Shown: positions 408 through 18,763 of the stretch, in pieces
How positions within the stretch are numbered: position 1 is the stretch's first letter
Layout of the letters: the number at the start of each line of letters is the position of its first letter
DNA from: an uncultured virus (IMG/VR IMGVR_UViG_3300017642_000062)
Taxonomy: Duplodnaviria > Heunggongvirae > Uroviricota > Caudoviricetes
DNA length: 20,000 bases
Reading direction: 5' to 3' (one strand)
IMG/VR virus record: IMGVR_UViG_3300017642_000062
Made by a program: the position numbers and the translations under genes
Notes under the pieces: generated by a model
Database searches by the model: none
What the model was told of the DNA's origin: nothing
What the model saw: the letters and a program-made list of their open reading frames with translations, nothing else

Positions 408-430
408 TTTGCTTGCTCCTTTCTTGGTGC

Positions 431-616: not shown

Positions 617-636
617 TGGTTCGCTCCGTTGCTTTG

Positions 637-834: not shown

Positions 835-853
835 GCCTGCCTCCTTTCACGGT

Positions 854-1218: not shown

Positions 1219-1238
1219 ATAGCGAGGAGGAATTCAGC

Positions 1239-1637: not shown

Positions 1638-1713
1638 ATAGCGCACACTTGCTGTCCGCCGGCACATCTTCGAGAAGGCGCAGTAGTTCCAGGACTTTCT
1701 TGCTTGATGCCAT
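1558..1713 (-). CDS. Unannotated 51-aa antisense peptide, candidate SinI-like antirepressor
   Basis: AGAAAGGAG RBS (1730-1722), ATG at 1713; MASSKKVLELLRLLEDVPADSKCALFTYLRSLQDSEDNEVPLPFYPEIETK*; TGG-TACACT extended -10 near 1754-1762. Confidence 0.6.
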   Translation of the reverse strand: MASSKKVLELLRLLEDVPADSKCALFTYLRSLQDSEDNEVPLPFYPEIETK

Positions 1714-1866
1714 ATTCGCCGCTCCTTTCTTTTATTCTGCCGGCAGTGTAGTTAGTGTACCACGGTTTGGTATTTATTGCAGAGAAAAGATAATTAATAA
1801 CTTTCGACTGACTTCGACCAGTGATATCCTGTATGTGTGGATTTTATGTTGTTGGGGAGGATTTGT

Positions 1867-2505: not shown

Positions 2506-2528
2506 ATTTTTGAATTGAGGTGACGCCG

Positions 2529-4487
2529 TTGGCAAAAAAGAAATCGCTGCCGAGTATCCAAGTGGAGGCGGACGGCGTTGAGTATGCGCGATATAGTAGC
2601 CACGCCCAAAAGGATGCCAGCATTGAGCAGCAGATAGAGAAGTGTGATGAATTCGCATCTATAAATAAAATCCATATCATTGAGAGATATAAGGACAGGG
2701 CAATTACCGGAAAGACTGATCGGCGCGCCGACTTCCAGCGGATGATGCACGATGCAGAAAAAGGGAAATTCAAATATGTCATAGCATGGAAATCAAATAG
2801 AATGGGTCGCAATATGCTGGAAGCGATGTTGAACGAGGCGAAGCTTCAAGACCTGGGAATCCGGGTTCTGTATGTTGAGGAGGACTTCGACGATACCGCA
2901 GCCGGGAGGTTTGCGCTCCGGTCCATGATGAATGTCAACCAGTTTTATAGCGAGAATATGGCGGAAGATATCAAGCGAGGGCTGTACGACAATGCCGCAA
3001 ACTGCAAAGTTACCAACGGGCATCTTCCGTATGGCTACAAAGCGGACGAAGATTTGAAGTATACGCTGGATGATTCAAGGGCCGCTGTCGTTCGGGAGAT
3101 ATTTACACGCGTCTCTTGTGGAGAAGCCATTGTTGATATCTATACAGATCTTAATTTGAGAGGGCTTACAACCTCTCTCGGAAACCAGTGGGGGAGGAGC
3201 AGCTTCAACAAGCTGTTGTCGAATGAGCGGTATCTGGGTATATATATTTACGGAGACGTCAGAATTGATGGCGGGATTCCTCGAATTGTTAGCGATGAAT
3301 TGTTTTACAAGGTGCAGGAGGTGTTGAAAACGAAGAAGAACGCCAGAGGGCGTCATCGTAATGATGCGGCCGATTATCTGCTTACCGGGAAATTGTATTG
3401 TGGGCATTGTAAAAGTCCAATGACTGGAATTTCAGGCACAAGCCGGACTGGCGCTTTGCATTACTATTATGTTTGCCAAAAGAAGCGGCAGGAAAAGTCG
3501 TGCGAAAAGAAGAACGTCAAGCGTGATGAAATCGAGTTGCAACTCGCAAGAGCCATAAAGGAATATTGCCTGACCGACGATCTGATTGAGTGGTATGCAG
3601 ACAAAACTGTTGAATATTTCAAACGTCAGTCTGAAACCGACCATATCAAAGATTTGCAGGAAGATCTGGCTAACACGCAGCGCAGCATAAAAAACACCCT
3701 CAAGGCCATTGACGCCGGGATTATCACAGAAAGTACCCGGACTCATCTTATAGAATTGGAGGCAAAACAATCGAGGCTTTCTGGAGCAATCTCTGCCGCA
3801 AAATCCGATGTCGTGCAAGTCGACCGCGAGGATCTAATTAGCAGCATGGAAATGGTGCGGGACGGAGATACCTATGACAAAAAATATCAAGCGCTGCTGT
3901 TCGATACTTTTCTCATACGGGTCTATTTATACGATGACGATCTGGAACTCATATTTAGTTGCCCTGGTGTTAAAAACTCAATAAGAATTCCGTTGGATAT
4001 TTCAGCAGTTGAAAATACAGAAGAAACAGCCACCTCAACGGTTCGTTTAAGCTCAACTTTGAGCCACCATATAAGAACGCTAATATTGATACGGTTAGTA
4101 TCGGTGTTAGCGTTCTTATTTTATGCCCGAAAAGCCTGTATTTACAGGCTTTTTTGTGTTTCTACACTCTATCACTTCTTTCACCTATACGAAAAATGCA
4201 CCCGCCGACCGTGTAAATTTGCCCTTTTTTATACCCTCGCAGAACGATTGCTTGCAAGGGGGTGCAAATTTCGGAGGGGGGTGCATTTTTTCATAGAGGG
4301 GGGTGCAAACGAAAAAAGAGGCCAAGCCTTACAGCTCGACCTCAATCTCTGTGCCGTTCTTAAACTCAAACACCATCCTGCCGTCATGGAAAACCGTAGC
4401 CTTTTCCAGCAATCCAACCCACAGCCTTTCGTTCCAGCTTTCGAGGACGAGGGGCTGTTCTTTTATGGATTCAATGAAAAGCCTTAG
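2529..4487 (+). CDS. Large serine recombinase (prophage integrase); recognisable part ends near 4069 and the remainder is read-through past the att site
   Basis: Catalytic YARYSS motif, recombinase domain, Zn ribbon (LTGKLYCGHC...YYYVC...C), coiled coil; likely TTG start at 2529 after GAGGTG. Confidence 0.9.
   Translation: MAKKKSLPSIQVEADGVEYARYSSHAQKDASIEQQIEKCDEFASINKIHIIERYKDRAITGKTDRRADFQRMMHDAEKGKFKYVIAWKSNRMGRNMLEAMLNEAKLQDLGIRVLYVEEDFDDTAAGRFALRSMMNVNQFYSENMAEDIKRGLYDNAANCKVTNGHLPYGYKADEDLKYTLDDSRAAVVREIFTRVSCGEAIVDIYTDLNLRGLTTSLGNQWGRSSFNKLLSNERYLGIYIYGDVRIDGGIPRIVSDELFYKVQEVLKTKKNARGRHRNDAADYLLTGKLYCGHCKSPMTGISGTSRTGALHYYYVCQKKRQEKSCEKKNVKRDEIELQLARAIKEYCLTDDLIEWYADKTVEYFKRQSETDHIKDLQEDLANTQRSIKNTLKAIDAGIITESTRTHLIELEAKQSRLSGAISAAKSDVVQVDREDLISSMEMVRDGDTYDKKYQALLFDTFLIRVYLYDDDLELIFSCPGVKNSIRIPLDISAVENTEETATSTVRLSSTLSHHIRTLILIRLVSVLAFLFYARKACIYRLFCVSTLYHFFHLYEKCTRRPCKFALFYTLAERLLARGCKFRRGVHFFIEGGANEKRGQALQLDLNLCAVLKLKHHPAVMENRSLFQQSNPQPFVPAFEDEGLFFYGFNEKP
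4040..4069 (+). other. Putative att junction resembling a tRNA 3' end (possibly tRNA-Phe)
   Basis: GGTTCG (T-loop-like) at 4040-4045 and TGAGCCACCA at 4060-4069; coding character collapses immediately afterwards. Confidence 0.6.
4071..4122 (+). terminator. Long hairpin or intrinsic terminator after the att site
   Basis: 22-bp stem ATAAGAACGCTAATATTGATAC / GTATCGGTGTTAGCGTTCTTAT, fully paired as RNA with 3 G:U pairs, followed by a short T run. Confidence 0.7.
4130..4309. repeat. Element-end motifs: a palindrome plus GGGGGTGCA repeats
   Basis: AAAAGCCTGT-ATTT-ACAGGCTTTT at 4130-4153; AG5-6TGCA at about 4257, 4275 and 4297; inverted copy GAAAAATGCACCC at 4191-4203. Confidence 0.7.
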
Positions 4488-5524
4488 TTCACGGTCGCGG
4501 TCTTGTTTCCGTGTCCGCTCGTCGCTCAGTTCGTCCACTCGTTTTGTGGCTTTCTCGTAACGCTTGACCAGCGCATTGTACTTTTTCGTGTATTCCTCTT
4601 GGGACTGCGCCGAAGAAGCGTTTTCCCTTACGCAGGACTTGACCATTTCGGCAACTACTTCGATTTCCTCTGACAGCCGGTCGATTTGCGCATCCAGTGC
4701 CGTGCAGTCCGAAACAGCCAATCGCATGAGCTCACAGTCGCTGATAACTGACTCGCGGCTTGCAATAAGCCGGTCGTAGGCAATCAGGAACTTCTGCTGG
4801 ATGGTCTCCGCATCGAGGTGCGGCGTAGCGCATCGCTGTTCGCCTTTGAATTTACTGTTGCAACGCCATATCACCTTGCGGTAGGTGTCGGTGGAGTGCC
4901 AGACCTTCTGCCCATAGAATCCACCGCAATCGCCGCAGACCAGCTTGGACGAAAACACGCTGTTGCCGCTGTAGGCTCTGCCGAGCGTCTTTCGGCGGGC
5001 AATCTCTGCCTGCACCATGTCCCATTCGACAGGACTGATAATAGCTTCGTGGCTGTGTTCCACATAATACTGCGGCACTTCGCCCTCGTTGGGCTTCATC
5101 TTTTTCATCAAGAAATCGACTGTGAACTTCTTTTGCAGAAGAGCATCACCCTTGTATTTCTCATTGGAGAGCATACTGTTTACCGTGGTCTGGCTCCATT
5201 TCTTTTTGCCGGAAGGTGTCGGAACGCCCTGTGCATCAAGGTATCGGCAAATTCCGGCAGGCGTCTTTCCCTCAAGGAAAAGCGTATAGATGAGCCGTAC
5301 AATGGTGGCTTCCTCCTCGTTGATAACAGGAGTGCCGTCCGCGCCTTTTTCGTAACCGAGGAATTGCTTGTACGGCATACTGACTTTGCCATCAGCAAAA
5401 CGCTTTCGTTGCCCCCATGTGACATTCTCGGAGATTGAGCGGCTTTCTTCCTGCGCAAGGCTGGACATTATCGTGATGAGCAGCTCGCCCTTGCTGTCGA
5501 AGGTGAAAATGTTCTCTTTTTCAA
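4329..5524 (-). pseudogene. Large serine recombinase, 5'-truncated or interrupted (catalytic N-terminus missing)
   Basis: Frame extends upstream of the annotated Met as EKENIFTFDSKGELLITIMSSLAQEESRSISEN (end of resolvase domain), then loses similarity and meets an in-frame TGA at 5531-5529; recombinase domain and Zn ribbon (CGDCG...WRC) intact. Confidence 0.85.
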
Positions 5525-5643
5525 GCAGTCATTGATTGCTACCATATCGTATTGGAAAGTTGAGAAAAGTGCCGTACTGCGGCCTTTTGTTGCTCTCAAA
5601 AGTGTGTATCGTGGCGCTTCGTGACCGACCGTTTAGAAGATTA

Positions 5644-5704
5644 AAACACCAAATAAACACCAAGCTGCAAGGCAATCTGTGCCTGTCATACAGCTTGGTG
5701 TTTT
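5644..5704. repeat. Candidate integrase arm-type sites and/or int terminator
   Basis: AAACACCAA twice in tandem (about 5644 and 5655) plus inverted TTGGTGTTT (5695-5703); AAACACCAAGCTG...CAGCTTGGTGTTT forms a stem. Confidence 0.55.
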
Positions 5705-5737
5705 TCTGTGTGGGAAGGCTTTTCTGTGCTGTGCCTC

Positions 5738-7099
5738 TCATACATCCGCCGTAGCCAGCGCCGTTGAAATGGCGTCGGAGGCTTGCTTCATGGTTTCGGC
5801 AAAGACGTGAGCGTAAATCGTCTCAGTGGTGCGTGTGTCCCTGTGGCCCAGATGCTCGGAAATCACCTTCACCGGCACACCCATGTTTATCAGGAGCGAG
5901 GCGTTTGCGTGGCGCAGGTCGTGGATATGTACATCCGGGAAATCGTGCTTGGCGAGAAGCTGCTTAAATTGCAGGTTGATATAGGATTTTGCCATGTACT
6001 CGCCGTATGACCCGGTGAAAACGGCTCCACGGTCAATCCAGCGTTTTCCTACAGCTTTCCGGCGCTCGTCCTGCCATTCCTTCTGCTCACGCAGGGTCTC
6101 CACCAATTGTGGCGGCAGCGCAATCACGCGGGCGCTGCTCTTGGTCTTGGGCGTGGTGAGCCGGTATTCTCCGTCCAGCCGGTAAAGATTGTACTTGACT
6201 GTAAGCATGGCCCTGTCCAAATCGACTTCATCCCAGTGCAGGGCGGTCAGCTCACCGACACGCATTCCAGTGTATAGGAGCGTTTTTATTACCCTCGGCA
6301 ACTGCGGATTGGTAAACTCATCGAGGAAAGTCATCAGTTCTTTACATTGCTCGGCATCAAGGTAGACGCGCTCCTTTTCCTCTCCGGCAGGCGTGGTGGC
6401 GTTCGTGACCGGATTTTTCAGCAGGAGCTCCTTTTTTACCGCAGTCGAGAAAATAGGTGACAGCGCTGTGCGGATACGCTTTATGGTACCCACGTCCAGA
6501 CTGCCACCTACTTCTTCTACAATAAATATGTCTTTCAACTTTACGCCCAGTGCCTCGGAAATCCTGACGGCAGTTTCCTTCAGGACCGTTTCACCGTTAC
6601 CGAGAGTGCGCAGTGTGTTCATGTTCACGCCGGACTTGCGGGCCAGCGGTCGGCGGGTACCGTACTCCAGCGTGGCAACGTCGCGCAGCTTGTAAGTTTC
6701 CCGTTTGCGACCGTCCCGGTACAACTCGTTGAACAGAGCGTCTATCCTCGCCGTGTTGATGTCCTTCAGCTTCATATTGCCGATATACGGCAGTACATAT
6801 AAGTTCATCAATTCCCGGTTATTTGCATAGGTGGCCGGTTTCAGCTTGTGAACGGCGATCTGCTCGTAATACCATGTCGCCAATTCCGAGAAGCGGATGT
6901 TCTCGTTCATATTCACCATGCCTTCACAGTGCTTCTCAAACTCGTAGGCATAGGCCATCGCCAGCTTGTCCGCTTTGCCCTCGGTCACACCCTCTGGCGG
7001 CGTGAACGTCGTATTTTTGCGTATCTGCTTACCGTATATATCGTAGCCCTGCGACACCATAATTCTGTAGGTGTCGCCTCGTTTCTGTACGCTCGGCAT
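5738..7099 (-). CDS. int: Tyrosine integrase with an internal HTH-like insertion
   Basis: Catalytic motifs TGMRVGE (R), TPKT (K), HDLRH, LGH and IYAH (Y); N-terminal arm-binding-like region; GGAGGG RBS before ATG 7099. Confidence 0.92.
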   Translation of the reverse strand: MPSVQKRGDTYRIMVSQGYDIYGKQIRKNTTFTPPEGVTEGKADKLAMAYAYEFEKHCEGMVNMNENIRFSELATWYYEQIAVHKLKPATYANNRELMNLYVLPYIGNMKLKDINTARIDALFNELYRDGRKRETYKLRDVATLEYGTRRPLARKSGVNMNTLRTLGNGETVLKETAVRISEALGVKLKDIFIVEEVGGSLDVGTIKRIRTALSPIFSTAVKKELLLKNPVTNATTPAGEEKERVYLDAEQCKELMTFLDEFTNPQLPRVIKTLLYTGMRVGELTALHWDEVDLDRAMLTVKYNLYRLDGEYRLTTPKTKSSARVIALPPQLVETLREQKEWQDERRKAVGKRWIDRGAVFTGSYGEYMAKSYINLQFKQLLAKHDFPDVHIHDLRHANASLLINMGVPVKVISEHLGHRDTRTTETIYAHVFAETMKQASDAISTALATADV

Positions 7100-7155
7100 C
7101 TGCCATCCCTCCATTCCGTAGTGGTATGTTCGCTCTGAACCGTGAAGAAGTCAAC

Positions 7156-7767
7156 TCATTCTTCTGGGTCAGGGCGGTTTATTTTTATCGTCCGATCCTC
7201 AATGGCAAGCCCTCGCTTAACAAGCTGCCTGAGAATGAATTCTTCGATATATTTCTGCAAATCCCAGATGAAATAGCCCTCAAGGTCAATGTTCCCCATG
7301 TGGCTGCGGTCTACATTGCCCTCCTCGACGGATTTAATCTGGGACGATTTGAGCGCGGCATCGTCAAGGAAATCGTAAAAATCTCGGTCGGAGAGCAGTT
7401 CGTTAATGGTTTCCATGAGAGTAGGCCCACCCTCGAAGGAAGCGGCGTCCTTTGCTCTTTTGAGCATATCTATTGCCTCCTCGGAGAGGCCCAGTTCCTC
7501 ATGGATGGATTTATTCTCGGAACTGACGCCCGTCAGCAGGTAATCCACAGATACGCCGAAGAACTCCGCTATCTTGACAAGCGTTTCCGGCGTCGGCTGC
7601 GTCTCTCCATTCTTATATAAGCTCACAGTCTGCTGCCGGATGCCGATTGCTTCCGCGAGCTCTTTGAGCGTGGTCTTTGCGTTTGTCTTTGGATGATGGT
7701 CAAGCAGCTCTCTCAACATCTTGGGGAACATCCCGTCATATCCAACTACTTGTAGCGCCATCGCCAT
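7156..7767 (-). CDS. XRE-family master repressor (Stl/ImmR-like position)
   Basis: LKELAEAIGIRQQTVSLYKNGETQP...IAEFFGVSVDYLL HTH_3 signature; AAGGAG RBS. Confidence 0.9.
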   Translation of the reverse strand: MAMALQVVGYDGMFPKMLRELLDHHPKTNAKTTLKELAEAIGIRQQTVSLYKNGETQPTPETLVKIAEFFGVSVDYLLTGVSSENKSIHEELGLSEEAIDMLKRAKDAASFEGGPTLMETINELLSDRDFYDFLDDAALKSSQIKSVEEGNVDRSHMGNIDLEGYFIWDLQKYIEEFILRQLVKRGLAIEDRTIKINRPDPEE

Positions 7768-7778
7768 ATCTCCTTTAA

Positions 7779-7902
7779 CTTTCGTTTTTCTTGAACTTTC
7801 TATTTTGCATTTCGGTTCTATTGATATTTCGCTTTTCCTGTGATATTATCATCATAACAAGCAAAACGAATGTTGTCAAGAGAAAATAAAGGAAAACGAA
7901 AA
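7779..7902. promoter_or_regulatory. Overlapping opposed promoters of the island switch with TTTCGnTTT-like operator repeats
   Basis: Rightward TTGATA(7821)-17-TATTAT(7844) with TGn; leftward TTGACA(7879-7874)-17-TATGAT(7856-7851) with TGn; TTTCGTTTT/AAAACGAA-like motifs recur in both orientations. Confidence 0.65.
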
Positions 7903-7921
7903 AAGATTGGAGGTACCGAGG

Positions 7922-8107
7922 ATGGCAAAGAAACCACTGGATAAAGCGGCGGCGGAGGCCCGGAGGGAATATTTCCGGGCATGGCGCAGGAAGAACGGCG
8001 ACAAGGTCAAGCAGTATAACGCCGACTACTGGCGCAGACAGGCCGAAAAGAAACTCACGGAGGAGGCGGGTACAAATGGAACAGCCAAACATGATGACGG
8101 TGCGTGA
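7922..8107 (+). CDS. Small basic helical protein, first gene of the rightward operon
   Basis: GGAGGT RBS, ATG 7922; ARREYFRAWRRKNGDKVKQYNADYW. Confidence 0.75.
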   Translation: MAKKPLDKAAAEARREYFRAWRRKNGDKVKQYNADYWRRQAEKKLTEEAGTNGTAKHDDGA

Positions 8108-8321
8108 AATCGCCCGCACGGGCTTGCTCTCGGAGCACGCGCTCCGGCTCATGCTGAAAGCCGGTAAACTCCCGGCAATTTACATCGGCAAAAAGGCGCT
8201 CATCAATTACGATAAGCTGTGCGCTGAACTGCAAGGGCTTGAGGCGGATTTCGCGGCAGAGCCTGTAAGCGACCCGTTCCTGCCGACGCTGCCGGGTGGA
8301 ACCCCGTTCAGGCGCGGCTGA
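8076..8321 (+). CDS. Excisionase-like winged-helix (HTH_17/MerR-like) DNA-binding protein
   Basis: MMTVREIA...LRLMLKAGKLPAIYIGKKALIN pattern; GGAGG RBS. Confidence 0.75.
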   Translation: MEQPNMMTVREIARTGLLSEHALRLMLKAGKLPAIYIGKKALINYDKLCAELQGLEADFAAEPVSDPFLPTLPGGTPFRRG

Positions 8322-8413
8322 CAATTAAAACTGGGCTTGGCCCGGTCGTTTCCCGGAAGCGGATGTCGACCTAAAACAGATTATGGGATTACTATGCCCG
8401 AAGGAGGCGGAGA

Positions 8414-8557
8414 ATGAAAAACCGCAAACGGCAGCGGGAGAACCGCAAAGAAGAAAAACTGGATAAAACGAATCATACGGGAGTAAAAGATTTGACTCCA
8501 TACAATGCCGTCCGGCTGATGCGTAGCGGCAAAATTTATGACATCAAATATAAATGA
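8414..8557 (+). CDS. 47-aa basic hypothetical protein (below the ORF-track cutoff)
   Basis: AAGGAGG RBS at 8401-8407; MKNRKRQRENRKEEKLDKTNHTGVKDLTPYNAVRLMRSGKIYDIKYK*. Confidence 0.6.
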   Translation: MKNRKRQRENRKEEKLDKTNHTGVKDLTPYNAVRLMRSGKIYDIKYK

Positions 8558-8595
8558 ACAGCGCCATAAGCGCTCCGCAGAAAGGAGGTGGCGAG

Positions 8596-10899
8596 ATGGA
8601 GAAGCGAATGCCGGACCCCATGCTGGAGCTAAAACAGATGCGGATCTGGATGCTGTGGCGCTGGGAAGTCAAGGAAAATGGTGAGCGCACGAAGGTGCCT
8701 ATAGCTGCTGGCGGCGGCCCGTCCGGTACCACAGAGAAGTGGAACCGTACATGGGTCACATATGATGAAGTGGTAAAGGCGGAGGAAAAAAATCCTGCAG
8801 CGGCCGGTATCGGCTTCAAGATACCAGAAGGCTACTACTTCATTGATATAGACCACAGAGCGCTTACTGACCCGCTTGTGCAGACGATTCTTTTACGGCA
8901 TGATTCGTATGCGGAATACTCGGTCAGCGGCACCGGCATCCACCAGTACGGTAAATGCGATTTTACGCAAATTCCCACCTATATTGACAAAAACGGAAAG
9001 CTGAAGCTCGACGGGCAGTTCTATACGAAAAATCCCAATAACGAAATGGAACTGTACATCGGCGGCATCACAAACCGCTTCGCAGCCTATACCGGAAATG
9101 TGATTGAAAACAAGCCTCTCCGGGAGTGTACCGCCGCTATCCTTACTACCTTAGATAAGGATATGCGCCGCGCGAGAAAGGTCAAATACAGCGTCAAGCG
9201 TGACGGAGAGAAGGTTACTTTCGATCTTATTTGCAATCTCCGCAAACAGAAAAACGGCGAAAAATTCTGTAAATTGTTTGACAAGGGAGACTTCAGCGAC
9301 TACGGTTCCCAGTCTGAAGCGGACGCGGCGCTCTGCGCGTTGCTCGCATTCCGTGCAGGACCGGACCCGGAAATGATAGACGCCGTCTTTCGGCAGTCGG
9401 CATTGTACCGGGATAAATGGGATCGAGAGGATTACCGGGATGCCACCATTGCCCTCGGCATCGAAGCCTGCCACGGCGTGTTCCACAAGTCAAAAATGGA
9501 TCACCCGTACTTCATCCTTTTTGACGATGATGGTAAGCCCTTTGTATCCGCTCCGCTACTGGCCAAATATATTCGTGAAAACCAGAGATACATCCTCGTC
9601 CGGGACAATGGCAAACAAGGCACACTCATCTACGTTTATAAGAACGGCTGCTACCGGCTATATGCCCCGGATATGATGAAGGGCGTCATCAAAGGCTATA
9701 TCGCGGCGTATGACGAAACATTGGTAAGAATGACTCTCGTCAGCGAAGTGTATGGCCAATTGACTACAGACCTTAACTATGTCAGTCAGGATGAGCTCAA
9801 CGCCGACGAGAGTCTTATCAACTTTACCAACGGCCTCTTGCGCGTGACAGCAACGGAACTGACGCTGCTGCCACACTCCCCGGATGTTCTATCGACTATT
9901 CAGATTCCATGCAGATGGACCGGGCATCCAGAGCCTACGCCGACCTTCGACCAGTATATCACGGACTTCACAAGCGTCGATAAGGCCATCGAGCAACTGC
10001 TTTTGGAATTTATGGGCGTTGGTCTTTCCAACGTGAAGGGCTGGCGTATGAAGAAGTCGCTGTTCATGGTAGGCGATGGCGATACCGGAAAATCCCAGCT
10101 AAAAAGCCTCACAGAGCTGTTGCTCGGTAAGGGTAATTTCATCGGCATCGACCTGAAAGAGATTGAGGCCCGGTTCGGCACCGGTGCTATCTATGGTACC
10201 CGCCTTGCCGGTAGCTCAGATATGAGCTTTCTGTCCGTGGACGAGCTAAAGACCTTCAAAAAGATCACGGGCGGCGACAGTCTGTTCGCGGAGTTCAAAG
10301 GACAGCAGGGTTTTGAGTACACCTACAACGGCCTGCTCTGGTTCTGCATGAACCGGCTCCCCAAGTTCGGCGGCGACGACGGCCAGTGGGTCTATGACCG
10401 CATTATGGTCGTAGAGTGTAAAAACGTGATTCCGAAGGACAAGCAGGATAAGACTCTGCTTGACAAAATGTACGCCGAGCGCGAGGGCATCGTCTACAAG
10501 GCTGTCAAAGCCCTCCAGACAGTCATTTCCAACAGCTATCGCTTCTCCGAACCGGATTTCGTCAGCAAGGCTCGTGACACCTATATGTGCGAAAACAATA
10601 CCGTTATTAGCTTCTATCACGAGTGCATGGCAGAGCGCCCACAGCCGGGTACGGTTAAGGACACCTGCACCACTGGGAAGGTTTATGACGTCTATAAGGC
10701 GTGGTGCCACGACAACAATAATGGCTACGCCAAGACCGCCAAGGAGTTCCGTGACACGCTGGCCGGGATGCTCGGCAGCACGTTTAAAGGTATGACCATT
10801 CATACAGACAAGGGCACCTGCTACCGCGACCTCACGCTCACGATCGACGCAAAGCAGCAGTACCAAAGGGAGTACGGTTATGATGAGCTTCTCGGCTGA
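8596..10899 (+). CDS. Primase-polymerase/SF3 helicase (P4/D5-family primase with NrS-1-like N-terminus)
   Basis: AEP-like DIDH and SVSGTGIH motifs, helical bundle (SQSEAD...FRQSALYRDKWDR), D5_N-like region (INFTNGLL), Walker A GDGDTGKS; AAGGAGGT RBS before ATG 8596. Confidence 0.9.
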   Translation: MEKRMPDPMLELKQMRIWMLWRWEVKENGERTKVPIAAGGGPSGTTEKWNRTWVTYDEVVKAEEKNPAAAGIGFKIPEGYYFIDIDHRALTDPLVQTILLRHDSYAEYSVSGTGIHQYGKCDFTQIPTYIDKNGKLKLDGQFYTKNPNNEMELYIGGITNRFAAYTGNVIENKPLRECTAAILTTLDKDMRRARKVKYSVKRDGEKVTFDLICNLRKQKNGEKFCKLFDKGDFSDYGSQSEADAALCALLAFRAGPDPEMIDAVFRQSALYRDKWDREDYRDATIALGIEACHGVFHKSKMDHPYFILFDDDGKPFVSAPLLAKYIRENQRYILVRDNGKQGTLIYVYKNGCYRLYAPDMMKGVIKGYIAAYDETLVRMTLVSEVYGQLTTDLNYVSQDELNADESLINFTNGLLRVTATELTLLPHSPDVLSTIQIPCRWTGHPEPTPTFDQYITDFTSVDKAIEQLLLEFMGVGLSNVKGWRMKKSLFMVGDGDTGKSQLKSLTELLLGKGNFIGIDLKEIEARFGTGAIYGTRLAGSSDMSFLSVDELKTFKKITGGDSLFAEFKGQQGFEYTYNGLLWFCMNRLPKFGGDDGQWVYDRIMVVECKNVIPKDKQDKTLLDKMYAEREGIVYKAVKALQTVISNSYRFSEPDFVSKARDTYMCENNTVISFYHECMAERPQPGTVKDTCTTGKVYDVYKAWCHDNNNGYAKTAKEFRDTLAGMLGSTFKGMTIHTDKGTCYRDLTLTIDAKQQYQREYGYDELLG

Positions 10900-11189
10900 C
10901 AGTTCTGACAGTTCTCTGACAGTTTCAGGAGCAAACTGTCAGTCAAAAAAGCCAGTAATATCAATGGTTTCACGCTCATGCTGACACTTCTGACAGTTCT
11001 TTCAACTTCTCAGCCGATTTGAGTAAAGTTAAGAAGCAAATAAAAAGTGAGATAAGGATTGTATGAGCGTGGGATAAACACAGAAAAAGTGTCAGAACTG
11101 TCAGTCAAGTCTGGAAAGCCTTGATATGACTATGTTTCCGGCGTTTTGAAACTGTCAGAGAACTGTCAGTCAACTGTCAGAACTGTCAG
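10896..11189. repeat. Iteron array, probable replication origin
   Basis: CTGACAGTT forward at 10896, 10905, 10916 and 10990 (variant 10981); reverse AACTGTCAG at 10934, 11096, 11150, 11161, 11172 and 11181 (variant 11087); A/T-rich core about 10999-11086. Confidence 0.85.
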
Positions 11190-11271
11190 CCGCAAATGTA
11201 ATCCGAGCCGTGGATGGGGGCCTAAACCGTTACCCCACTCACGGTGTTTTTATGAAAGGAGGGAAAACGAC

Positions 11272-11487
11272 ATGAATCTGATCGATTTGCTGTACGGCAA
11301 GAACCACGACAGCGCCAAAGGCAAACTGCGCCTGCAGAATCGCGCTGGTGAGCCGGTTACGGTGACCAAGGAAATCCGCTATACCGTCGCAGACGGAGCG
11401 TCCAATGTCCACATCAACGGCTATGAAGATTTAGCCCAGTACTGCCGAAGGGCCGGATACACCTATCGTTCCGGCAAGACGGTATAA
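11272..11487 (+). CDS. 71-aa hypothetical protein upstream of the capsid homolog
   Basis: AAAGGAGGG RBS before ATG 11272; the longer ORF-track start lies inside the iterons. Confidence 0.7.
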   Translation: MNLIDLLYGKNHDSAKGKLRLQNRAGEPVTVTKEIRYTVADGASNVHINGYEDLAQYCRRAGYTYRSGKTV

Positions 11488-11514
11488 CCATAACAACATT
11501 TGGAGGAAAAACTT

Positions 11515-12441
11515 ATGAATAACGAAAAGAATTATCTCATCGGCACACCTGAATACGACAAGCACTTCTGGAACGCCATGCGCGGAGCAAAAATCGACAC
11601 GGCTCTGGAAGCTGGCAGAAGCAGCGTTACCAACTCCTACGCTCTGCCGAGCGCCGCAAACAACAAATACACGGCGGCGCTGGCCACTGAAAGCCTGTTC
11701 CGGCAGATCGGTACAACTGTTATGGCCTACGATTCCGAGTACCGCATTTTTGCCCACGACTGCGATGATCTGGCACAGTGGGTTCCAGAGGGCGGCAAGC
11801 TCCCGATCTTTGATGGCGCGAACGACTTTACCCGGTACAAGGTAGATAGCTGGAAACTGGGCGCACTCGTGAAGCTGGATGAGGATTTTGTGCGTGATGC
11901 TACCTTTAATGTGGAGGACTATCTTGTACGGCGTCTGGCAAAGAATTTCGGCAGGGCCGAGGACGCCGCCTTCATCAGCGGCACCAGTGAGCAGATGCCC
12001 ACGGGAATCCTCAACGCCACGGGCGGCGCGGAGATCGGCTGCACCGGCAGCATCACATACGACGACGTCATCAAGCTGTACTTCTCTGTCAAGCCGGAGT
12101 ACCGCAAGAACAGTGTATGGCTCATGAACGACGAGACTGCGCTGGCTCTGCGTACACTCAAGGATAGCTCTGGGAATTACCTCTGGCGCGACAGCGATGA
12201 CACCATTCTCGGCAAGCGTGTGGTCATGAACAGCGCCATGCCCTCTGTGGCGGCAGGCGCAAAGCCGATTGCCTTCGGTGATTTCAGTTATTACTGGGTC
12301 ATTGCCCGTGGCCCGGTCAGCGTGGTGCCTATTATGGAACACTTCACGCTGAATCAGCAGATTGGCTATCTGGCGTTTGAGTTCCTTGACGGAAAACTTA
12401 TCCGTCCGGAGACCATCAAGGTGCTGCAAATAGCCGAATAA
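11515..12441 (+). CDS. HK97-fold major capsid protein homolog lacking the N-terminal delta/scaffold region
   Basis: EYDKHFWNAMRG, AEDAAFISGT..MPTGIL, WLMND, LKDSSGNYLW, ILGKRV, AFGDFSYYW and DGKLIRPE motifs; GGAGG RBS before ATG 11515; 308 aa. Confidence 0.88.
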   Translation: MNNEKNYLIGTPEYDKHFWNAMRGAKIDTALEAGRSSVTNSYALPSAANNKYTAALATESLFRQIGTTVMAYDSEYRIFAHDCDDLAQWVPEGGKLPIFDGANDFTRYKVDSWKLGALVKLDEDFVRDATFNVEDYLVRRLAKNFGRAEDAAFISGTSEQMPTGILNATGGAEIGCTGSITYDDVIKLYFSVKPEYRKNSVWLMNDETALALRTLKDSSGNYLWRDSDDTILGKRVVMNSAMPSVAAGAKPIAFGDFSYYWVIARGPVSVVPIMEHFTLNQQIGYLAFEFLDGKLIRPETIKVLQIAE

Positions 12442-12493
12442 GCCGCAATAACGGGAGCAGGGAGCGTCGAGATGGCGCTCTCCGCCCTTAATA

Positions 12494-12576
12494 CCCCGTT
12501 TGATTTCGCGTTTTAACACGCGAGGCCCCACGCCCGTTGTCCGCTTTAAAAGTTGTAGAGATTTTACCTCCCCCCC
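12494..12576 (-). other. Putative phage packaging (cos-like) signal
   Basis: Minus strand GGGGGGAGGTAAAATCTCTAC...GCGGACAACGGGCGTGGGGCCTCGCGTGTTAAAACGCGAAATCAAACGGGG; resembles, from recall, the G-run region between HNH and terS genes in Bacillota siphophages. Confidence 0.5.
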
Positions 12577-12581
12577 GCCGG

Positions 12582-13220
12582 TCACCGGAATGCCGAATTG
12601 CCCGTAAGGTTTTTAAGCAGTACCTTACGGGCAATTTTGTATTCGTCACCAATGAAACCCAGCCGCAGCAGGAAACAGCGGAAAGCGTACTTGTCGTTGT
12701 CGGTCTCGGCTATCACGGCCACCACGCGCTTTTGCTTTCGAGCCATCTCGCATAGCTTGGTAACAAAGGCAGAGTAGGCATTGACCTCGTCCGGTTCCGA
12801 TGTGAACGGAAACCATGGAAAGCTGACCGTTGTATCGGTGACTACCGCCTCAATAGAATCAGCCAGAAACGCTTTCTTGAAAAGAGGCGCTCTGGCTGTT
12901 ACGATTTGCTGCAGTGTTTCAATGTTGGCGTTGGTGAAGAGTTCCCTCGGCATGGAGATTGTGAGCCTGTCCTCGGTCTCAACCGCCTCGCCTACATACC
13001 CACGGGAGCGCAGATGCTCAAGCAGCGTCGTTGCCGTTTCCTCCGCCACGCAGTCCGGTATGATTAGCTTTCCGTCCCGCTCCAGAGTGCAATCACCGAT
13101 TTGGTAAGAGCAGGTGGGATAGCCCAGGTACTTGGGAATGGTGTGCAGGACCACGCTGATGTCCTCGGCAAGCTGCTTTCTCTGCTTGCCGGTGATGTTG
13201 TAGGGTATGGTCATTTTCAT
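12582..13220 (-). CDS. Prophage-type 'virulence-related protein' family hypothetical
   Basis: Conserved C-terminus NDKYAFRCFLLRLGFIGDEYKIARKVLLKNLTGNSAFR and N-terminal GKQRKQL...KYLGYPT; AAGGAGG RBS. Confidence 0.75.
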   Translation of the reverse strand: MKMTIPYNITGKQRKQLAEDISVVLHTIPKYLGYPTCSYQIGDCTLERDGKLIIPDCVAEETATTLLEHLRSRGYVGEAVETEDRLTISMPRELFTNANIETLQQIVTARAPLFKKAFLADSIEAVVTDTTVSFPWFPFTSEPDEVNAYSAFVTKLCEMARKQKRVVAVIAETDNDKYAFRCFLLRLGFIGDEYKIARKVLLKNLTGNSAFR

Positions 13221-13352
13221 GTTCTGTGCCTCCTTGTTTTTGGTAGGTGCATATTCGCTCTGAATGCACAGAATAGCAAGTCATTTTCGAGAAATGTATC
13301 AGAAAGCTAAAAGTATTCTGTAGGATAATTTCTCATAATGTGCGAAACAGCA

Positions 13353-13381
13353 TTGTATTTTGGGATTTTATGTGCTATTAT
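13353..13381 (+). promoter_or_regulatory. Putative promoter of the HTH-hsdRSM operon
   Basis: TTGTAT-17-TATTAT with TGn extended -10, in AT-rich intergenic DNA. Confidence 0.5.
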
Positions 13382-13420
13382 TTAATTTAGGTTATTATAT
13401 ATTAAGCTTGGAGGCACATT

Positions 13421-13651
13421 ATGGCTACCTCATATAACAAGTTATGGAAACTGCTTATAGACAAAAAAATGAGCAAGGCTGACTTGCGGAAAGCCTCCGG
13501 CGTGTCTCCCAACACGATGACCAAGCTGCGCCGGGACGAGCCGGTCATGCTCAATGTGCTGGACAAGATATGCAAAACCTTGGATGTCAACTATGGGGAT
13601 ATCGTTGATTATATTGTGGATGAAACCGGTGGAAAGGATGTGGAGCAATGA
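13421..13651 (+). CDS. Cro/C1-type HTH_26 regulator (controller-like) heading the R-M operon
   Basis: SYNKLWKLLIDKKMSKADLRKASGVS...LDKICKTL signature; ATGA overlap with hsdR. Confidence 0.88.
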   Translation: MATSYNKLWKLLIDKKMSKADLRKASGVSPNTMTKLRRDEPVMLNVLDKICKTLDVNYGDIVDYIVDETGGKDVEQ

Positions 13652-16047
13652 GTTATAACGAGGCTGATACAAGAGCCAAATTAATTGACCCTACTATTCA
13701 CGCAAAAGGCTGGACAGAAGACCACATCAAGCGCGAGGTATCTGCCGGAACAATTGAAATAACAGGTAAAAAAGCCAAGCGGCTAAAAAAAGGCCGTGTT
13801 GACTACACACTTCGTCTAAGGGTGAATAGCGATTCTCAACCGATAGCCGTTGCGCTCATTGAGGCAAAGAAAGAATCATTGTCACCCGGTTTTGGCTTGG
13901 AACAAGGCAAGCGCTATGCAGAAACAAAGTGCAATAATCTAAATATCAAGTTTGTCTATTCCAGCAATGGACATATGTTTGTTGAATATGATAGATTCAC
14001 CGGACTTATCAGCAATCCGAAGCCGATGAGCGAATTCCCAACTACTGAAGAACTCCGTCGTCGCTATGAGGAGGGCATGGGATTCAGTCTTGCAGACGAA
14101 AAGGCCAAGCCACTGCTTGCAAAGTATACTGGTGGTGAATCTGCAAGACGCTATTATCAGGATGCTGCAATCCGAGCAGCATTTGAAAAAATTGCCCAAG
14201 GTGGCAACAGAGTATTGCTTTCACTCGCAACAGGAGCGGGCAAGACTTTTATCGCGGTAAATTTGCTAAAACGTATTTCTGATGCCGGACAGCTTCGTAA
14301 GGCTCTTTTTGTATGTGACCGTGACGAATTACGCACACAGGGTAACAAAGCTTTTCAGGATAAATTCGGCAGTAATGCCGCTATCGCCATAGCAGGTAAT
14401 CCACAGCATAATGCGCGTGTGATTATTGCAACCTATCAGACACTTGGTGTGTCCGCCGATGACGATGATCCTTCGTTCTTGGTAGAGAATTACCCAGAAA
14501 ACTACTTCAGCCATATTGTTATTGATGAATGCCACCGCAGCGCATGGGGCAAGTGGAGCGAAGTCTTAAAACGCAATCCGGATGCAATTCAAATCGGATT
14601 GACCGCTACTCCGCGCCAAATAAAAGTACCGGAGGGTGTCGCTATAACCCCAGAAGACGAACGAATTGCAGCAGACAACATAAAACACTTTGGTGAAGCA
14701 GTGTATGAATACACATATCAACAGGCTGTAGAGGATGGTTACCTTGCCGCCTGCGTGATACAGCCTGGAAATGTTAACATTGACGATACCGGTTTAACCA
14801 TTGATGAAATAATGGCCTTAAAGCCACGTCATGCCATTACGGGTAAATTGATGACGCGAGATGAGCTGCAAGAAATCTATACAAGTCACGATTTCGAGCG
14901 AAAAATTATGTTGCCGGATCGTGTTCAGATTATGTGCAAGAATCTGTTTAATTATCTTCTTGAGACCGGTTCTCCTCTGCAGAAGACAATCATTTTCTGT
15001 GTTAGGGAAAGCCATGCCTCCGCTGTTGCTGCTGCTATGAACAACCTTTATATTGACTGGTGCAACAGCCACGAGATAGAACAGAGCAAGCGTTCGGCAC
15101 ATTATGCCTTTAACTGTACATATCACGAAGGCAAGGACTATGTTGCCGATATGAAAGGTAGCACAAAGGATTACTTTATTGCAACGACCGTAGATCTGCT
15201 TTCTACTGGCGTTGATATTCCTCCGTTGCGTAACATTGCATTCTTCCGCTATTTGGAATCGCCAATCACTGTTATGCAGATGTTTGGACGCGGTACCAGA
15301 CTGTTTGAAGACAAGCTGATGTTCACTATTTATGACTATACTGATGCTACCCGTCTATTGGGCGAAGAATACATCTCAAAACCCAAGTCTGGCGGCGGCC
15401 CCTCTCTACCCGGTGGGGATGGCACCGGTGATGATGGAGAAAACGATGGAAATGATGGCGGTGATGGCGGCAAAATCCCTAATATCATCACAGCAGACGG
15501 TGTGGAATGCTATATTACCAACGGCAGCAAATATATCGTTACTGAGATTGAAGGCAAGATTGGCCGAATGCCGCTGGAAGAATATAAGGAAGCTATTGCA
15601 CAAAGGCTTGTCAACAACTATGACACCATTGACAGTTTCCGCGCAGCTTGGATTGACCCGTCCTCAAGGCAGGAAATAATCAATGGTCTGGTTCGCAGCG
15701 GCTATGGGCCGGAGGTCGTAAGAACGGTCGAAGATATGCAGGCTTTTGATATTTATGATGTTCTGGCTGAGCTTGCCTACGGCTCTGAGCCGAAAACACG
15801 CAGCGCAAGAGTGTCCGGGTTCAAATATAAAAATCGAGCGTGGCTGAGCCAATTCTCTGCGGATGTGGCAGAGGTCATCCTTGCCATTGTTTCCGAATTT
15901 GAGACGGACGGAACCAAAGCCTTGGAAAATCCCCAGATTTTCAGAACAAACAAGGTGATGCAGGCCGGCGGTCTTCGCGTCCTTAAAAGTGCTGGAAAAC
16001 CGAATGAAATTATAGCTGAAGCTAAACGGAGGATCTTTGTAGCATGA
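13648..16047 (+). CDS. hsdR: Type I restriction enzyme R subunit (EcoAI/EcoEI-like)
   Basis: NEADTR start, nuclease motif DY...IEAKK, Walker A ATGAGKT, DECH box, GLTATP, LLSTGVD, QMFGRGTRL. Confidence 0.93.
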   Translation: MSYNEADTRAKLIDPTIHAKGWTEDHIKREVSAGTIEITGKKAKRLKKGRVDYTLRLRVNSDSQPIAVALIEAKKESLSPGFGLEQGKRYAETKCNNLNIKFVYSSNGHMFVEYDRFTGLISNPKPMSEFPTTEELRRRYEEGMGFSLADEKAKPLLAKYTGGESARRYYQDAAIRAAFEKIAQGGNRVLLSLATGAGKTFIAVNLLKRISDAGQLRKALFVCDRDELRTQGNKAFQDKFGSNAAIAIAGNPQHNARVIIATYQTLGVSADDDDPSFLVENYPENYFSHIVIDECHRSAWGKWSEVLKRNPDAIQIGLTATPRQIKVPEGVAITPEDERIAADNIKHFGEAVYEYTYQQAVEDGYLAACVIQPGNVNIDDTGLTIDEIMALKPRHAITGKLMTRDELQEIYTSHDFERKIMLPDRVQIMCKNLFNYLLETGSPLQKTIIFCVRESHASAVAAAMNNLYIDWCNSHEIEQSKRSAHYAFNCTYHEGKDYVADMKGSTKDYFIATTVDLLSTGVDIPPLRNIAFFRYLESPITVMQMFGRGTRLFEDKLMFTIYDYTDATRLLGEEYISKPKSGGGPSLPGGDGTGDDGENDGNDGGDGGKIPNIITADGVECYITNGSKYIVTEIEGKIGRMPLEEYKEAIAQRLVNNYDTIDSFRAAWIDPSSRQEIINGLVRSGYGPEVVRTVEDMQAFDIYDVLAELAYGSEPKTRSARVSGFKYKNRAWLSQFSADVAEVILAIVSEFETDGTKALENPQIFRTNKVMQAGGLRVLKSAGKPNEIIAEAKRRIFVA

Positions 16048-17210
16048 CTTTACACAAGGTATATAAAAGCGTTCCGCTTGGCAGTATATGTGAAATAATA
16101 TCTGGTACAACTCCTTCATCAGCTGTTCCAGAATATTGGAACGGTGAAGTAAAATGGATAACACCTGCAGAACTGTCAGATGACACGTTTTATGTTAATG
16201 ACAGTGTTAGAAAGATAACATCACGGGCTGTCAAAGATTGCTCCCTTCGTCCTATTCCAGCAGGTACCGTTATTTTGTCTTCTCGTGCGCCGATAGGAAA
16301 AGTTGCAATTGCAGCAACAGAATTATACTGTAATCAGGGTTTTAAGAATCTCGTTTGCTCTGAAAAGATTGACAACCTATATCTTTATTGGTTTTTGAAG
16401 GCAAACACCGATCATCTTAATTCATTGGGAAGTGGGGCCACTTTCAAAGAAATATCAAAGAAAGTCATTGAAAAGGTCGAAATCCCTCTACCGCCTATTG
16501 AGATTCAGCAGTCGATAGCTACGAAATTGTCAAAGCAATTATCAGCCATTGATGTACTGGCAAAAAAGACAGAACGGCAATTACAAGACGCCATTAGCCT
16601 TGTTGCTCGTATCAATAAACAAACGATTATATTTAATGGTAAGAAGCAACCGCTTTCCAAGTATTGTTCTGAAGATAAACGGATTATTCAACCAGAATTT
16701 GAAGAAGCAAAAACTCTGAAATATCTTGGAATGGAGAATATCGACAAGGATACCTGGGAGTATATAGCAAGTACGGATATTCTTTTATCTGGCAACAGCA
16801 CAACATATTATTTTAATGAAAACCATGTGCTTTATGGAAAGTTGCGTCCATACTTAAAAAAAGTATTTTTGCCGAAAGAGGCGGGCAGGTGTTCAACCGA
16901 ATTAATACCGCTCCTACCAGCAGATACAATGGAACGCGAGTATTTAGCGCTATTATTAACCGATGATGACCTTGTTAGCTACATCATGAGTGAATCAACT
17001 GGGGCACGGATGCCACGTTCAGATATGAAGAAACTCCTTGCATATAAAGTGGCTGTACCGGATATTGATGAACAACGGGCACGCTTGAAGGCAAGAAATG
17101 AGCAAATGAAAAAATGTACAGAGTTAATTATAAAACTCTGTAAACAGCAGGAAAACATTACAGCCCTGCGTGAATGTGTATTTAAAGAAGCCTTTGGAAA
17201 CGAGGAATAA
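16044..17210 (+). CDS. hsdS: Type I R-M specificity subunit
   Basis: Two TRDs with conserved motifs (SGTTP..YWNG, NQGF, IPLPPIEIQ, YGKLRPYL, VPDIDEQ); ATGA overlap with hsdR. Confidence 0.93.
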   Translation: MTLHKVYKSVPLGSICEIISGTTPSSAVPEYWNGEVKWITPAELSDDTFYVNDSVRKITSRAVKDCSLRPIPAGTVILSSRAPIGKVAIAATELYCNQGFKNLVCSEKIDNLYLYWFLKANTDHLNSLGSGATFKEISKKVIEKVEIPLPPIEIQQSIATKLSKQLSAIDVLAKKTERQLQDAISLVARINKQTIIFNGKKQPLSKYCSEDKRIIQPEFEEAKTLKYLGMENIDKDTWEYIASTDILLSGNSTTYYFNENHVLYGKLRPYLKKVFLPKEAGRCSTELIPLLPADTMEREYLALLLTDDDLVSYIMSESTGARMPRSDMKKLLAYKVAVPDIDEQRARLKARNEQMKKCTELIIKLCKQQENITALRECVFKEAFGNEE

Positions 17211-17213
17211 GAG

Positions 17214-18710: not shown

Positions 18711-18763
18711 ATTTAGTTGGGCCTAGTTATTACCTACTCTCTAAATCGACGGAGGTATCCGCA

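Follow-up and report, generated by a model that had tools for sequence, protein, structure and literature searches.

The 20,000-nucleotide stretch of DNA analyzed here (the window) was recovered from an uncultured virus of the Caudoviricetes, IMG/VR record IMGVR_UViG_3300017642_000062. It holds all but the right end of a mobile element of about 14.65 kb, which lies between two copies of a 20-bp direct repeat. The element encodes a single phage-type structural protein, a homolog of HK97-fold capsid proteins that lacks the delta (scaffold) domain, and carries a conserved non-coding motif after the capsid gene. We consider it likely that the element is a satellite that depends on a helper phage and is packaged through this motif. 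An initial annotation, made from the sequence of the window, had already proposed a satellite resembling phage-inducible chromosomal islands (PICIs), with a lone capsid homolog and a borrowed packaging signal. Two observations had been named in it as speaking against this proposal: terminase, portal, and tail genes just beyond the window, and homologous loci marking the region as a one-off deletion remnant of a prophage. Both were looked for and neither was found, and its interpretation is supported for that reason. The motif, about 100 nucleotides long and homologous to the gap between the HNH and TerS genes of certain phages, is new with respect to that annotation.

A capsid protein without a scaffold domain

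The capsid gene is located at positions 11515–12441 on the plus strand. Its open reading frame (ORF) was listed as 11500–12441, but the ATG at 11515 is the likely start and yields a protein of 308 amino acids, the length of the 99%-identical protein P0001. The match to PF05065 (E 5e-62) covers nearly the full length of the profile (positions 3–279 of 280). In a profile search of PDB sequences the protein matched the major capsid protein (MCP) of RcGTA (E 4.5e-38), in agreement with a structural comparison by Foldseek. There, an AlphaFold2 model (pLDDT 89.9, from an 82-row alignment) retrieved, in this order, the RcGTA capsid (E 1.5e-22), the capsid of the capsid-forming PICI (cf-PICI) EcCI2 (9gyi, E 6e-17), and the shells of HK97, T5, and SaPI1/80alpha. 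The model thus shows a whole HK97 subunit of the mature type that has no scaffold domain.

The nearest phage proteins, at 35–40% identity, are the MCPs of Ca. Heliusvirales gut phages and of Erysipelothrix phage phi1605. These relatives are about 400 amino acids long, and their surplus of some 75–84 residues is entirely N-terminal. The phage N-termini form coiled-coil delta domains, whereas the element proteins begin about 18 residues before a common FWNAMR motif; the N-terminus of the element product lies near that of mature phage capsid proteins. No delta domain was found in the element capsids, nor was a scaffold family recognized among the neighboring small ORFs. The lone, scaffold-less capsid homolog first described is therefore confirmed, its phage relatives carrying about 80 additional N-terminal residues.

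Short and long capsid proteins were also clearly separated in a class-wide sample of 400 genomes. Open frames of 301–340 amino acids, at 43–64% identity, were present in 12 genomes, with fragments in 2 more, and frames of 355–476 amino acids (all but one of at least 394), at 30–43% identity, in 36; no intact intermediate was found between them. A tree of 126 sequences (quick search, midpoint root) split 91 element capsids from 35 phage MCPs by one branch with an SH-aLRT support of 100. In this tree, the capsids lacking a delta domain appear as a single clade, sister to the phage capsids.

Some element capsids seemed to carry N-terminal extensions of 49–79 residues. These were considered as delta domains and rejected, as they are read-through of the region of an upstream Zn-ribbon gene in another frame, and one of them contains a stop codon. 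Capsid coordinates were taken from tblastn throughout, because ORF calling chose the antisense capsid frame in the window and in 5 loci.

A family of elements in anaerobic Bacillota

A search with the capsid protein yielded 2519 homologs at E ≤ 1e-3; among the 120 matches listed, nearly all are 307–317 amino acids long. We confirmed 293 relatives among genomes (one genome per species) and 167 in IMG/VR. From each of these sets 80 loci were analyzed, and 109 element-type loci (1.44 Mb) were compared with 51 phage-type loci from IMG/VR. As suggested in the initial annotation, we searched for loci combining the primase and the short capsid: an ORF of the primase cluster lies within 4 kb upstream of the capsid gene in 51 of the 60 genome loci with at least 4 kb of upstream DNA. 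Of the 57 genome loci with 3 kb or more of downstream DNA, 52 encode a recombinase within 4.5 kb on that side (45 serine and 7 Tn916-type tyrosine recombinases). The usual order in the relatives is an optional block of defense cargo with a helix-turn-helix (HTH) gene of the HTH_26 family, then c3 (319 amino acids), HTH_17, primase, small ORFs, often an ORF for a 103-amino-acid Zn-ribbon protein, capsid, and recombinase.

Within this order, modules are shuffled. The recombinases are interchanged across the family, and include large serine recombinases, Tn916-type and Xer-like enzymes, and the 458-amino-acid tyrosine integrase of the window. In locus L003, the capsid protein is 97% and the product of the preceding 71-amino-acid ORF 80% identical to those of the window, while the primase shares only 24% identity. 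The DNA of L003 is 94% identical over positions 11249–12584 of the window, which points to joint inheritance of the 71-amino-acid ORF and the capsid gene.

We searched the 109 element-type loci by tblastn with HNH, TerS, TerL, portal, and protease queries from three phage sources, and found no match to TerL, TerS, or portal. The remaining queries gave one ClpP-like match, in L012 at a distance of about 9 kb from the capsid gene, and one HNH-like match in L043 that was weak (E 9e-4). In the 51 phage-type loci, this query set detected TerL in 34 and portal in 40. A complete unit of 9,093 bp was found in genome G098 in three tandem copies that are 90–97% identical (contig C1, approximately 336–363 kb; loci L177 and L178). 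By Pfam and PHROGs, its 13 ORFs include a primase, a capsid protein, a tyrosine recombinase (small and Xer-like), two HTH proteins, one of them by a weak match, and a c3-like ORF whose HNH-like match in PHROGs is weak; none of the 13 belongs to a terminase, portal, or protease family. As in PICIs, lysis, tail, and most structural genes are absent from the window, the G098 unit, and the 109 loci. Family scans of the window, the relatives, and the G098 unit also showed no relaxase or other transfer function.

According to the record titles, the hosts belong to many anaerobic Bacillota lineages. The earlier proposal of a Clostridia family thus pointed correctly to anaerobes, although "Clostridia" is slightly too narrow. 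No description of the family was found in the main text of literature that came mostly from outside subscription journals and included papers on the primase, on gut transduction, and on the Heliusvirales, and this large family is apparently undescribed.

Two further genes recur in the relatives. A 103-amino-acid protein with two CPxC pairs, resembling a Zn-ribbon, is encoded directly 5' of the capsid gene in many of them (L019, 9642–9953; L012, 9684–9998). It has no Pfam or PHROG match and is absent from the window, where the unrelated 71-amino-acid ORF takes its place. The leftward gene c3 (approximately 319–391 amino acids, 35 loci) holds the position of the repressor in most relatives (L023, 1318–2277, minus strand; L177, 6177–7181, minus strand). 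It belongs to no Pfam family, and its C-terminal part is only weakly similar to an HNH-endonuclease PHROG (E 1e-5 and 4e-4).

A conserved motif homologous to the HNH-TerS gap of phages

Directly after the capsid gene, at 12486–12574 on the plus strand, the window contains a conserved non-coding motif that is a candidate cos (packaging) site. When a profile of some 100 columns was derived solely from the elements, it recovered the motif from 72 of 80 genome loci and, in IMG/VR, from 26 of 29 element loci. Of the 73 loci offering sufficient DNA, 52 have the motif at most 450 bp after the capsid gene, and its DNA is conserved even where the flanking genes differ. As an RNA, the motif matched no Rfam family at E ≤ 1 and gave no consensus structure in RNAalifold.

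In phage DNA, the matches of this element-derived profile all fell in the gap between the HNH and TerS genes, upstream of the genes for TerL, portal, ClpP-type protease, and MCP. The flanking phage genes were confirmed as HNH and Terminase_4. The motif was found in this gap in all 11 phages or prophages tested there, which are mostly Ca. Heliusvirales-like, with one of the matches being weak. These include the co-resident prophage regions of genomes G002, G004, and G005 (3 of 3), the GenBank phages tested (6 of 6, E 5e-18 to 5e-6), and the IMG/VR contig L129 (E 7.6e-7 and 2e-7 in two profile searches). By blastn, the window's own 106 nucleotides matched 11 phage records, the best being Streptococcus phage Javan630 (84% over 87 nucleotides, E 5e-17), where the matching site lies directly upstream of the first packaging gene.

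The gap between HNH and TerS is the usual position of cos in HNH-dependent cos phages such as HK97 and phi12. Such phages are described, in the published text available, as requiring HNH as well as TerS-TerL. The orientation of the motif with respect to its neighboring genes differs among phages, most elements, and G098, where it lies upstream of the capsid gene and is oriented opposite to most elements; a DNA site therefore fits better than a promoter. With regard to the packaging route expected of a PICI, no terS gene was found, and what the elements do contain is the motif with its homology to the HNH-TerS gap of phages. The borrowed packaging signal proposed initially has in this way gained a homologous phage sequence, while we infer its role in packaging.

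The motif occurs in two versions. Its C-rich blocks (CCCCACGCC) are swapped for G-rich blocks (GGGGGCGG) in the elements L078, L001, and L058 and in the phages L196, L195, and L185 (alignment A2, columns approximately 60–75 and 105–115). The C-run and G-run versions occur in parallel in phages and elements, and may represent specificity classes. We met no description of the cos site of Heliusvirales-type phages, and no search was aimed at it.

Relation to probable helper phages

The probable helper group consists of Ca. Heliusvirales and related temperate Bacillota phages, which hold the nearest phage capsid proteins and have in common with the elements the motif and a gene of the "amidoligase" family. 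These are full phages of 49–79 kb with TerS, TerL, portal, ClpP-type protease, and an MCP of about 400 amino acids with a delta domain, whereas the element has its single capsid protein. A term search of the available text of the paper on the Heliusvirales lineage did not return the word "satellite".

A long phage-type MCP was also encoded in 3 of 5 hand-chosen genomes bearing an element. Between elements and co-resident prophages, the motif is too diverged for blastn, and a profile was needed for its detection. In G002 and G005, two of the three genomes compared, the motif of the element was most like that of the co-resident phage (73% and 85%, respectively). Among cultured strains, Acetobacterium carbinolicum DSM 2925 carries an element (L035) together with a prophage capsid gene (L169), and its two motifs are reciprocal best matches; Acetivibrio mesophilus N2K1 likewise carries both an element and a Heliusvirales-type prophage. 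G005 additionally contains a block of recombinase, TnpW, and motif that is 88% identical between the element (L029, 11043–13137) and the phage-type region (L189, 9537–12168). In the latter, a serine recombinase gene (minus strand) and a TnpW-like ORF of 53 amino acids (minus strand) are followed by the motif and terS (plus strand). The identity of this block suggests that integrase and motif moved together between phage and element.

Boundaries and mobility of the element

The left copy of the direct repeat, the core of the left attachment (att) site attL (AAACACCAAATAAACACCAA), is located at 5644–5663, and the exact 20-mer recurs in the tail of metagenome contig L179. This contig was retrieved by scanning metagenome contigs with a 44-nucleotide stretch from the end of the window. 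It is 100% identical to positions 11979–20000 and extends 439 bp beyond the window, and places the right copy (attR) approximately 291–310 bp past the window end. The right boundary that the initial annotation had advised to locate is thereby found, and the element ends at this second repeat rather than running on into terminase, portal, and tail genes. A search for att repeats inside the window returned chance-level 10–11-mers only. The integrase, att sites, and size of roughly 10–15 kb that characterize PICIs are found here at about 14.65 kb, and in G098 with units of 9.09 kb.

Evidence for mobility came from contigs of 4 public sequencing runs (bioreactor, sludge, and wastewater metagenomes), picked among 20 runs from 17 studies that contain the element. 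A contig of run X1 matches the left flank up to position 5663 and continues with the exact letters found 3' of the right-hand repeat in L179. This contig is an empty-site junction, and it coexists with contigs that cross into the integrase gene; occupied and empty sites were thus both present in run X1, in a natural population.

The core, from about 5509 to 13309, was covered in all 4 runs, while the cargo past about 13309 was absent in X6 and present at lower depth in X4. The relatives L028, L084, and L085 have the core and a 212-amino-acid gene in common with the window at 86% DNA identity, followed by different cargo, which in L028 closes with the identical 20-bp repeat. Because of the repeat, the run coverage, and these relatives with swapped cargo, we regard 5525–13220 as a conserved backbone within an element that ends just past the window. 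The span originally annotated, 5525–13220, therefore holds as a backbone but not as an element: the true left end is at 5644–5663, conserved core DNA extends to about 13309, and 13220 is the end of a backbone gene, with the element continuing beyond the window.

Three independent assemblies (an X1 contig, an X3 contig, and L179) break off at nearly the same point, approximately 346–442 bp past the end of the window and some 40–130 bp beyond the right att repeat, with their ends spread over about 100 bp. The coincidence of these ends hints at another repeat or a variable junction there.

Genes of the core, the cargo, and the left flank

The gene order described initially, with integrase and repressor genes leftward, followed by a small gene, xis, a small gene, primase-helicase, origin, the 71-amino-acid ORF, and the capsid gene, was borne out for all genes by Pfam and PHROGs. 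The 458-amino-acid tyrosine integrase (5738–7114, minus strand) matches PF00589 (E 2e-27), with SAM-like N-terminal domains, and phrog_1 (E 9e-71). A candidate repressor of 203 amino acids (7156–7767, minus strand) belongs to the Cro/CI-type HTH_3 family (PF01381, E 3e-16) and matches repressor PHROGs. Between the repressor gene and the rightward operon, promoter-like sites overlap face to face at 7821–7879; by consensus matching, these are TTGACA/TATGAT (11/12) on the minus strand and TTGATA/TATTAT (10/12) on the plus strand. The rightward genes begin with a small ORF of 66 amino acids (7907–8107, plus strand; phrog_14214, E 1.6e-7). It is followed by a gene for an Xis/AlpA-like HTH protein of 81 amino acids (8076–8321, plus strand), which has a weak match to an HTH PHROG (E 9e-4). 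Homologs of this protein at 74–81% identity are encoded directly 5' of the primase gene in L070, L084, and L110, and its counterpart in the relatives is HTH_17.

The primase-helicase of 781 amino acids (8554–10899, plus strand) combines an N-terminal part of the archaeo-eukaryotic primase/NrS-1 type with a D5-type helicase, with matches to PF22763 (NrS-1 HBD), PF08706 (D5_N), PF19263 (DUF5906), PF03288 (Pox_D5), and phrog_1829 (E 1e-113). The iteron-type replication origin proposed earlier was supported by motif counts. Allowing at most one mismatch, CTGACAGTT has 16 matches in the window against 3.9 expected, a number reached in 0 of 200 shuffles. Thirteen of these lie within 10896–11189, 7 on the plus and 6 on the minus strand, mostly in two facing blocks. 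Divergent regulation, followed by xis, primase/rep, and an adjacent origin, is an arrangement that, as predicted from these matches, conforms to that of PICIs. The 71-amino-acid ORF (11272–11487, plus strand) has no match in Pfam, PHROGs, or PADLOC. As noted from the outset, none of the window ORFs matched a terminase, portal, protease, or tail family in Pfam or PHROGs.

On the other side of the motif lies the gene for the 212-amino-acid protein, c9 (12582–13220, minus strand), which may be counted as backbone or accessory. It matches phrog_2443, "amidoligase enzyme" (E 7e-52), over profile positions 155–414 of 801, that is, over the middle part of this family only, and has no Pfam match. The protein is 91–92% identical in L028, L084, and L085. 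Depending on the relative, the gene is found on either side of the core (e.g., L002, 2478–3434).

The variable cargo region opens with a gene for an HTH_26 protein (13421–13651, plus strand; PF13443, E 4e-21), a family (c7) that adjoins cargo in 14 loci. L084 and L085 have this protein in common with the window at 94%, and then carry a different type I restriction-modification (RM) system. In the window, the first cargo is a type I RM system (13648–18710, plus strand) consisting of hsdR (13648–16047), hsdS (16044–17210), and hsdM (17214–18710). The second is the candidate defense pair PDC-M04 (18707–19997, plus strand), with gene A at 18707–19471 (E 2e-93; also DUF3800 by Pfam) and gene B, encoding 179 amino acids, at 19461–19997 (E 1e-60). 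PHROGs labels the second gene of this pair "replication protein". The cargo of relatives includes type I RM, type III RM, and T5orf172-ResIII genes.

Outside the element, a 5'-truncated gene for a large serine recombinase (4329–5528, minus strand) corresponds to residues 128–526 of its relatives. It lacks the first 127 or so codons (reading from 5528 down to 4332) and adjoins the left end of the island. Beyond the right att repeat of L028 lies the N-terminal part of a serine recombinase gene (9444–9926, minus strand), cut at about the same residues. As the window and L028 hold matching recombinase parts at the ends of their islands, the sub-family comprising the two may use recombinase genes of other mobile elements, or the DNA next to them, as insertion sites. 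Further to the left, positions 1–4069 represent the right end of another mobile element, with DUF3846, an HTH gene, a 222-amino-acid gene, and a 655-amino-acid serine recombinase. IMG/VR record G001 matches the window at 100% identity as far as 4069, where, still within the 3' end of the recombinase gene, the two sequences part; X1 and X4 contigs likewise end at 4069.

Comparison with known satellites

P4, the satellite of P2, is a small integrative element of Enterobacteria with a D5-type primase-helicase, which uses the cos site and terminase of its helper and forms smaller capsids from helper parts. The present element resembles P4 in being small and integrative and in its D5-type primase-helicase. 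It differs from P4 in its Bacillota hosts and its capsid-protein homolog, since P4 sets capsid size by the external scaffold Sid and not by a capsid homolog.

The closest analogues are the cos-type Staphylococcus aureus pathogenicity islands (SaPIs) SaPIbov4 and SaPIbov5, with helpers phi12 and phiSLT, both of them cos phages. In the portions of the literature consulted, cos SaPIs are described as islands of about 14 kb without terS, combining a conserved phage cos site with the capsid homolog Ccm, which forms the pentamers of small T=4 shells. Here, too, there is an island of about 14 kb with int, regulators, xis, primase/rep, and origin, a single homolog of an HK97-type MCP, and, in place of the helper cos copy, the candidate motif. 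The lone capsid homolog is related to the MCPs of the probable helpers, as the Ccm strategy would predict, at the 35–40% identity given above. Unlike Ccm, which according to the same sources keeps a cleavable delta domain of 87 residues (residues 1–87), the element capsid has none. The elements further differ from cos SaPIs in belonging to another branch of the host phylum and to another helper lineage, in their freely swapped recombinases, and in their defense cargo.

The likeness to SaPIbov5 and Ccm is one of architecture, known here from the genes. The element also resembles the cf-PICIs EcCIEDL933 and EcCI2, as far as these are described in the text available, in having a PICI-type backbone with its own HK97-fold capsid protein in a clade apart from phage capsids. 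cf-PICIs are described in that text as holding portal, protease, head connectors, HNH, TerS, and TerL. In contrast, such a full head and packaging module is absent from the 109 element-type loci, bar the weak HNH-like match in L043 and the ClpP-like match in L012. By analogy, we propose that the element works like a cos-type PICI with a Ccm-like capsid, as a variant of that strategy, and do not place it in the SaPI or cf-PICI lineages.

Proposed life cycle and alternative explanations

In the life cycle we envisage, a helper phage of the Heliusvirales-like group would relieve repression, upon which the island would excise and replicate from its own origin. The HNH-TerS-TerL machinery of the helper would recognize the cos-like motif of the island and package unit-length island DNA. 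The capsid subunit lacking a delta domain would co-assemble with the helper capsid protein, with the scaffold domains of the helper acting in trans. The outcome would be small capsids fitting 9–15 kb, or the poisoning of full-size helper heads, as Ccm does for SaPIbov5, and helper portal, connectors, and tails would finish the particle. Induction by the helper, packaging, and the effect of the capsid homolog on helper capsids are steps that we infer. That the capsid protein specifically redirects capsid size is a tentative proposal, which we rate as falling somewhat short of likely.

Several observations weigh against a helper-dependent satellite packaged through the motif. Among the 51 phage-type IMG/VR loci, L129 alone has the motif at E ≤ 1e-3. 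A weak match (E 0.13) is found at the correct place in L138, and these two are the only ones of the 51 with this type of HNH-TerS junction; 14 other phage-type loci with a distant HNH match have no motif. The motif therefore appears confined to the nearest phage group, and it is its position only that makes it a candidate cos site. Co-residence of elements with a prophage of the helper type is modest, at 4 of 14 element-bearing genomes against 32 of 386 others (Fisher p 0.03), and at 2 of 12 when two hand-chosen genomes are left out (p 0.27). In 2 of 3 genomes, element and co-resident prophage have no other DNA in common: by blastn, G002 showed no match and G004 a 46-bp match internal to the capsid gene only. 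In G004, moreover, the motifs of element and phage are not each other's best match (three genomes compared). Terminal direct repeats, which would suggest circular or packaged forms, were found in none of the contigs examined. Lastly, an HK97 capsid protein without its delta domain reportedly (Oh et al. 2014) cannot assemble alone, and the element capsid could therefore be purely an assembly poison.

This last point leads to a different view of the element, as a mobile defense island that is not packaged by related phages and whose capsid homolog is a dominant-negative decoy poisoning their heads. The defensive cargo of the window and of its relatives fits this view, as do the weak co-occurrence with helper-type prophages and the reported assembly failure of subunits without a delta domain. 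However, the family has spread and become mosaic across many lineages with no relaxase or transfer function in sight, and defense alone leaves the HNH-TerS-gap motif in 72 of 80 loci unexplained. Known satellites, moreover, combine interference with transfer, according to the parts of the literature consulted. We therefore consider a decoy island improbable. An element that is a satellite, yet whose motif is a regulatory site, with the true packaging signal elsewhere or absent, seems to us equally unlikely. The motif could then serve late-operon control by a late activator of the helper, or be an operator before recombinase genes. In phages it indeed stands directly 5' of the first packaging gene, with a "transcriptional regulator" gene often preceding HNH; in most elements it is 5' of a TnpW-like ORF and a serine recombinase gene, ending about 15 nucleotides before their ribosome-binding site. 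Yet in most elements the motif is reversed with respect to phages, so that a promoter of the phage type would direct antisense transcription into the capsid gene, and it is inverted again in G098. The window, L028, L084, and L085 have also retained the motif, although no gene lies after it on that strand.

A decayed prophage or a cf-PICI remnant in which, of the head and packaging genes, only the capsid gene survives would account for the phage origin of the capsid gene and the motif, and cf-PICIs with full head modules are described from Clostridium in the literature available. This explanation is close to refuted. The same minimal architecture, a recurrent combination of primase, capsid, and recombinase, is seen in most of the 109 loci, with capsid genes that are intact and conserved in length. 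All of these loci lacked matches to TerL, TerS, and portal, the element capsids form a single clade, and G098 holds three tandem intact units of 9.1 kb. With 293 relatives, the one-off deletion considered at the outset likewise does not apply.

Implications

Returning to the helper-dependent satellite, a more far-reaching view, which we hold to be rather doubtful, is that the element capsids are an ancient, monophyletic, "pre-matured" lineage of obligate co-assembling parasites of Heliusvirales-type heads, with a cos copy tracking the variants of the helper. The satellite family would then occur in hundreds of anaerobic Bacillota species, and shuttle restriction and other defense systems through gut, rumen, and digester microbiomes. 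Having no delta domain and needing no protease, pre-matured subunits might, for example, take pentamer positions to switch the T number.

Satellites that remodel capsids are known in detail from a few model bacteria only. If our interpretation is correct, the strategy of SaPIbov5, a capsid homolog combined with a borrowed cos site, reaches the strict anaerobes that dominate guts, rumens, and digesters, and is tied there to one of the most widespread lineages of gut phages. For Heliusvirales-type phages, the motif provides a cos-site candidate that can be put to the test. The capsid protein without a delta domain amounts to a natural experiment that bears on what sets the size of HK97-type shells, and on whether a subunit can assemble through the scaffold domain of its neighbor. 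The family would also provide a common vehicle for restriction-modification and other defense systems in these anaerobes.

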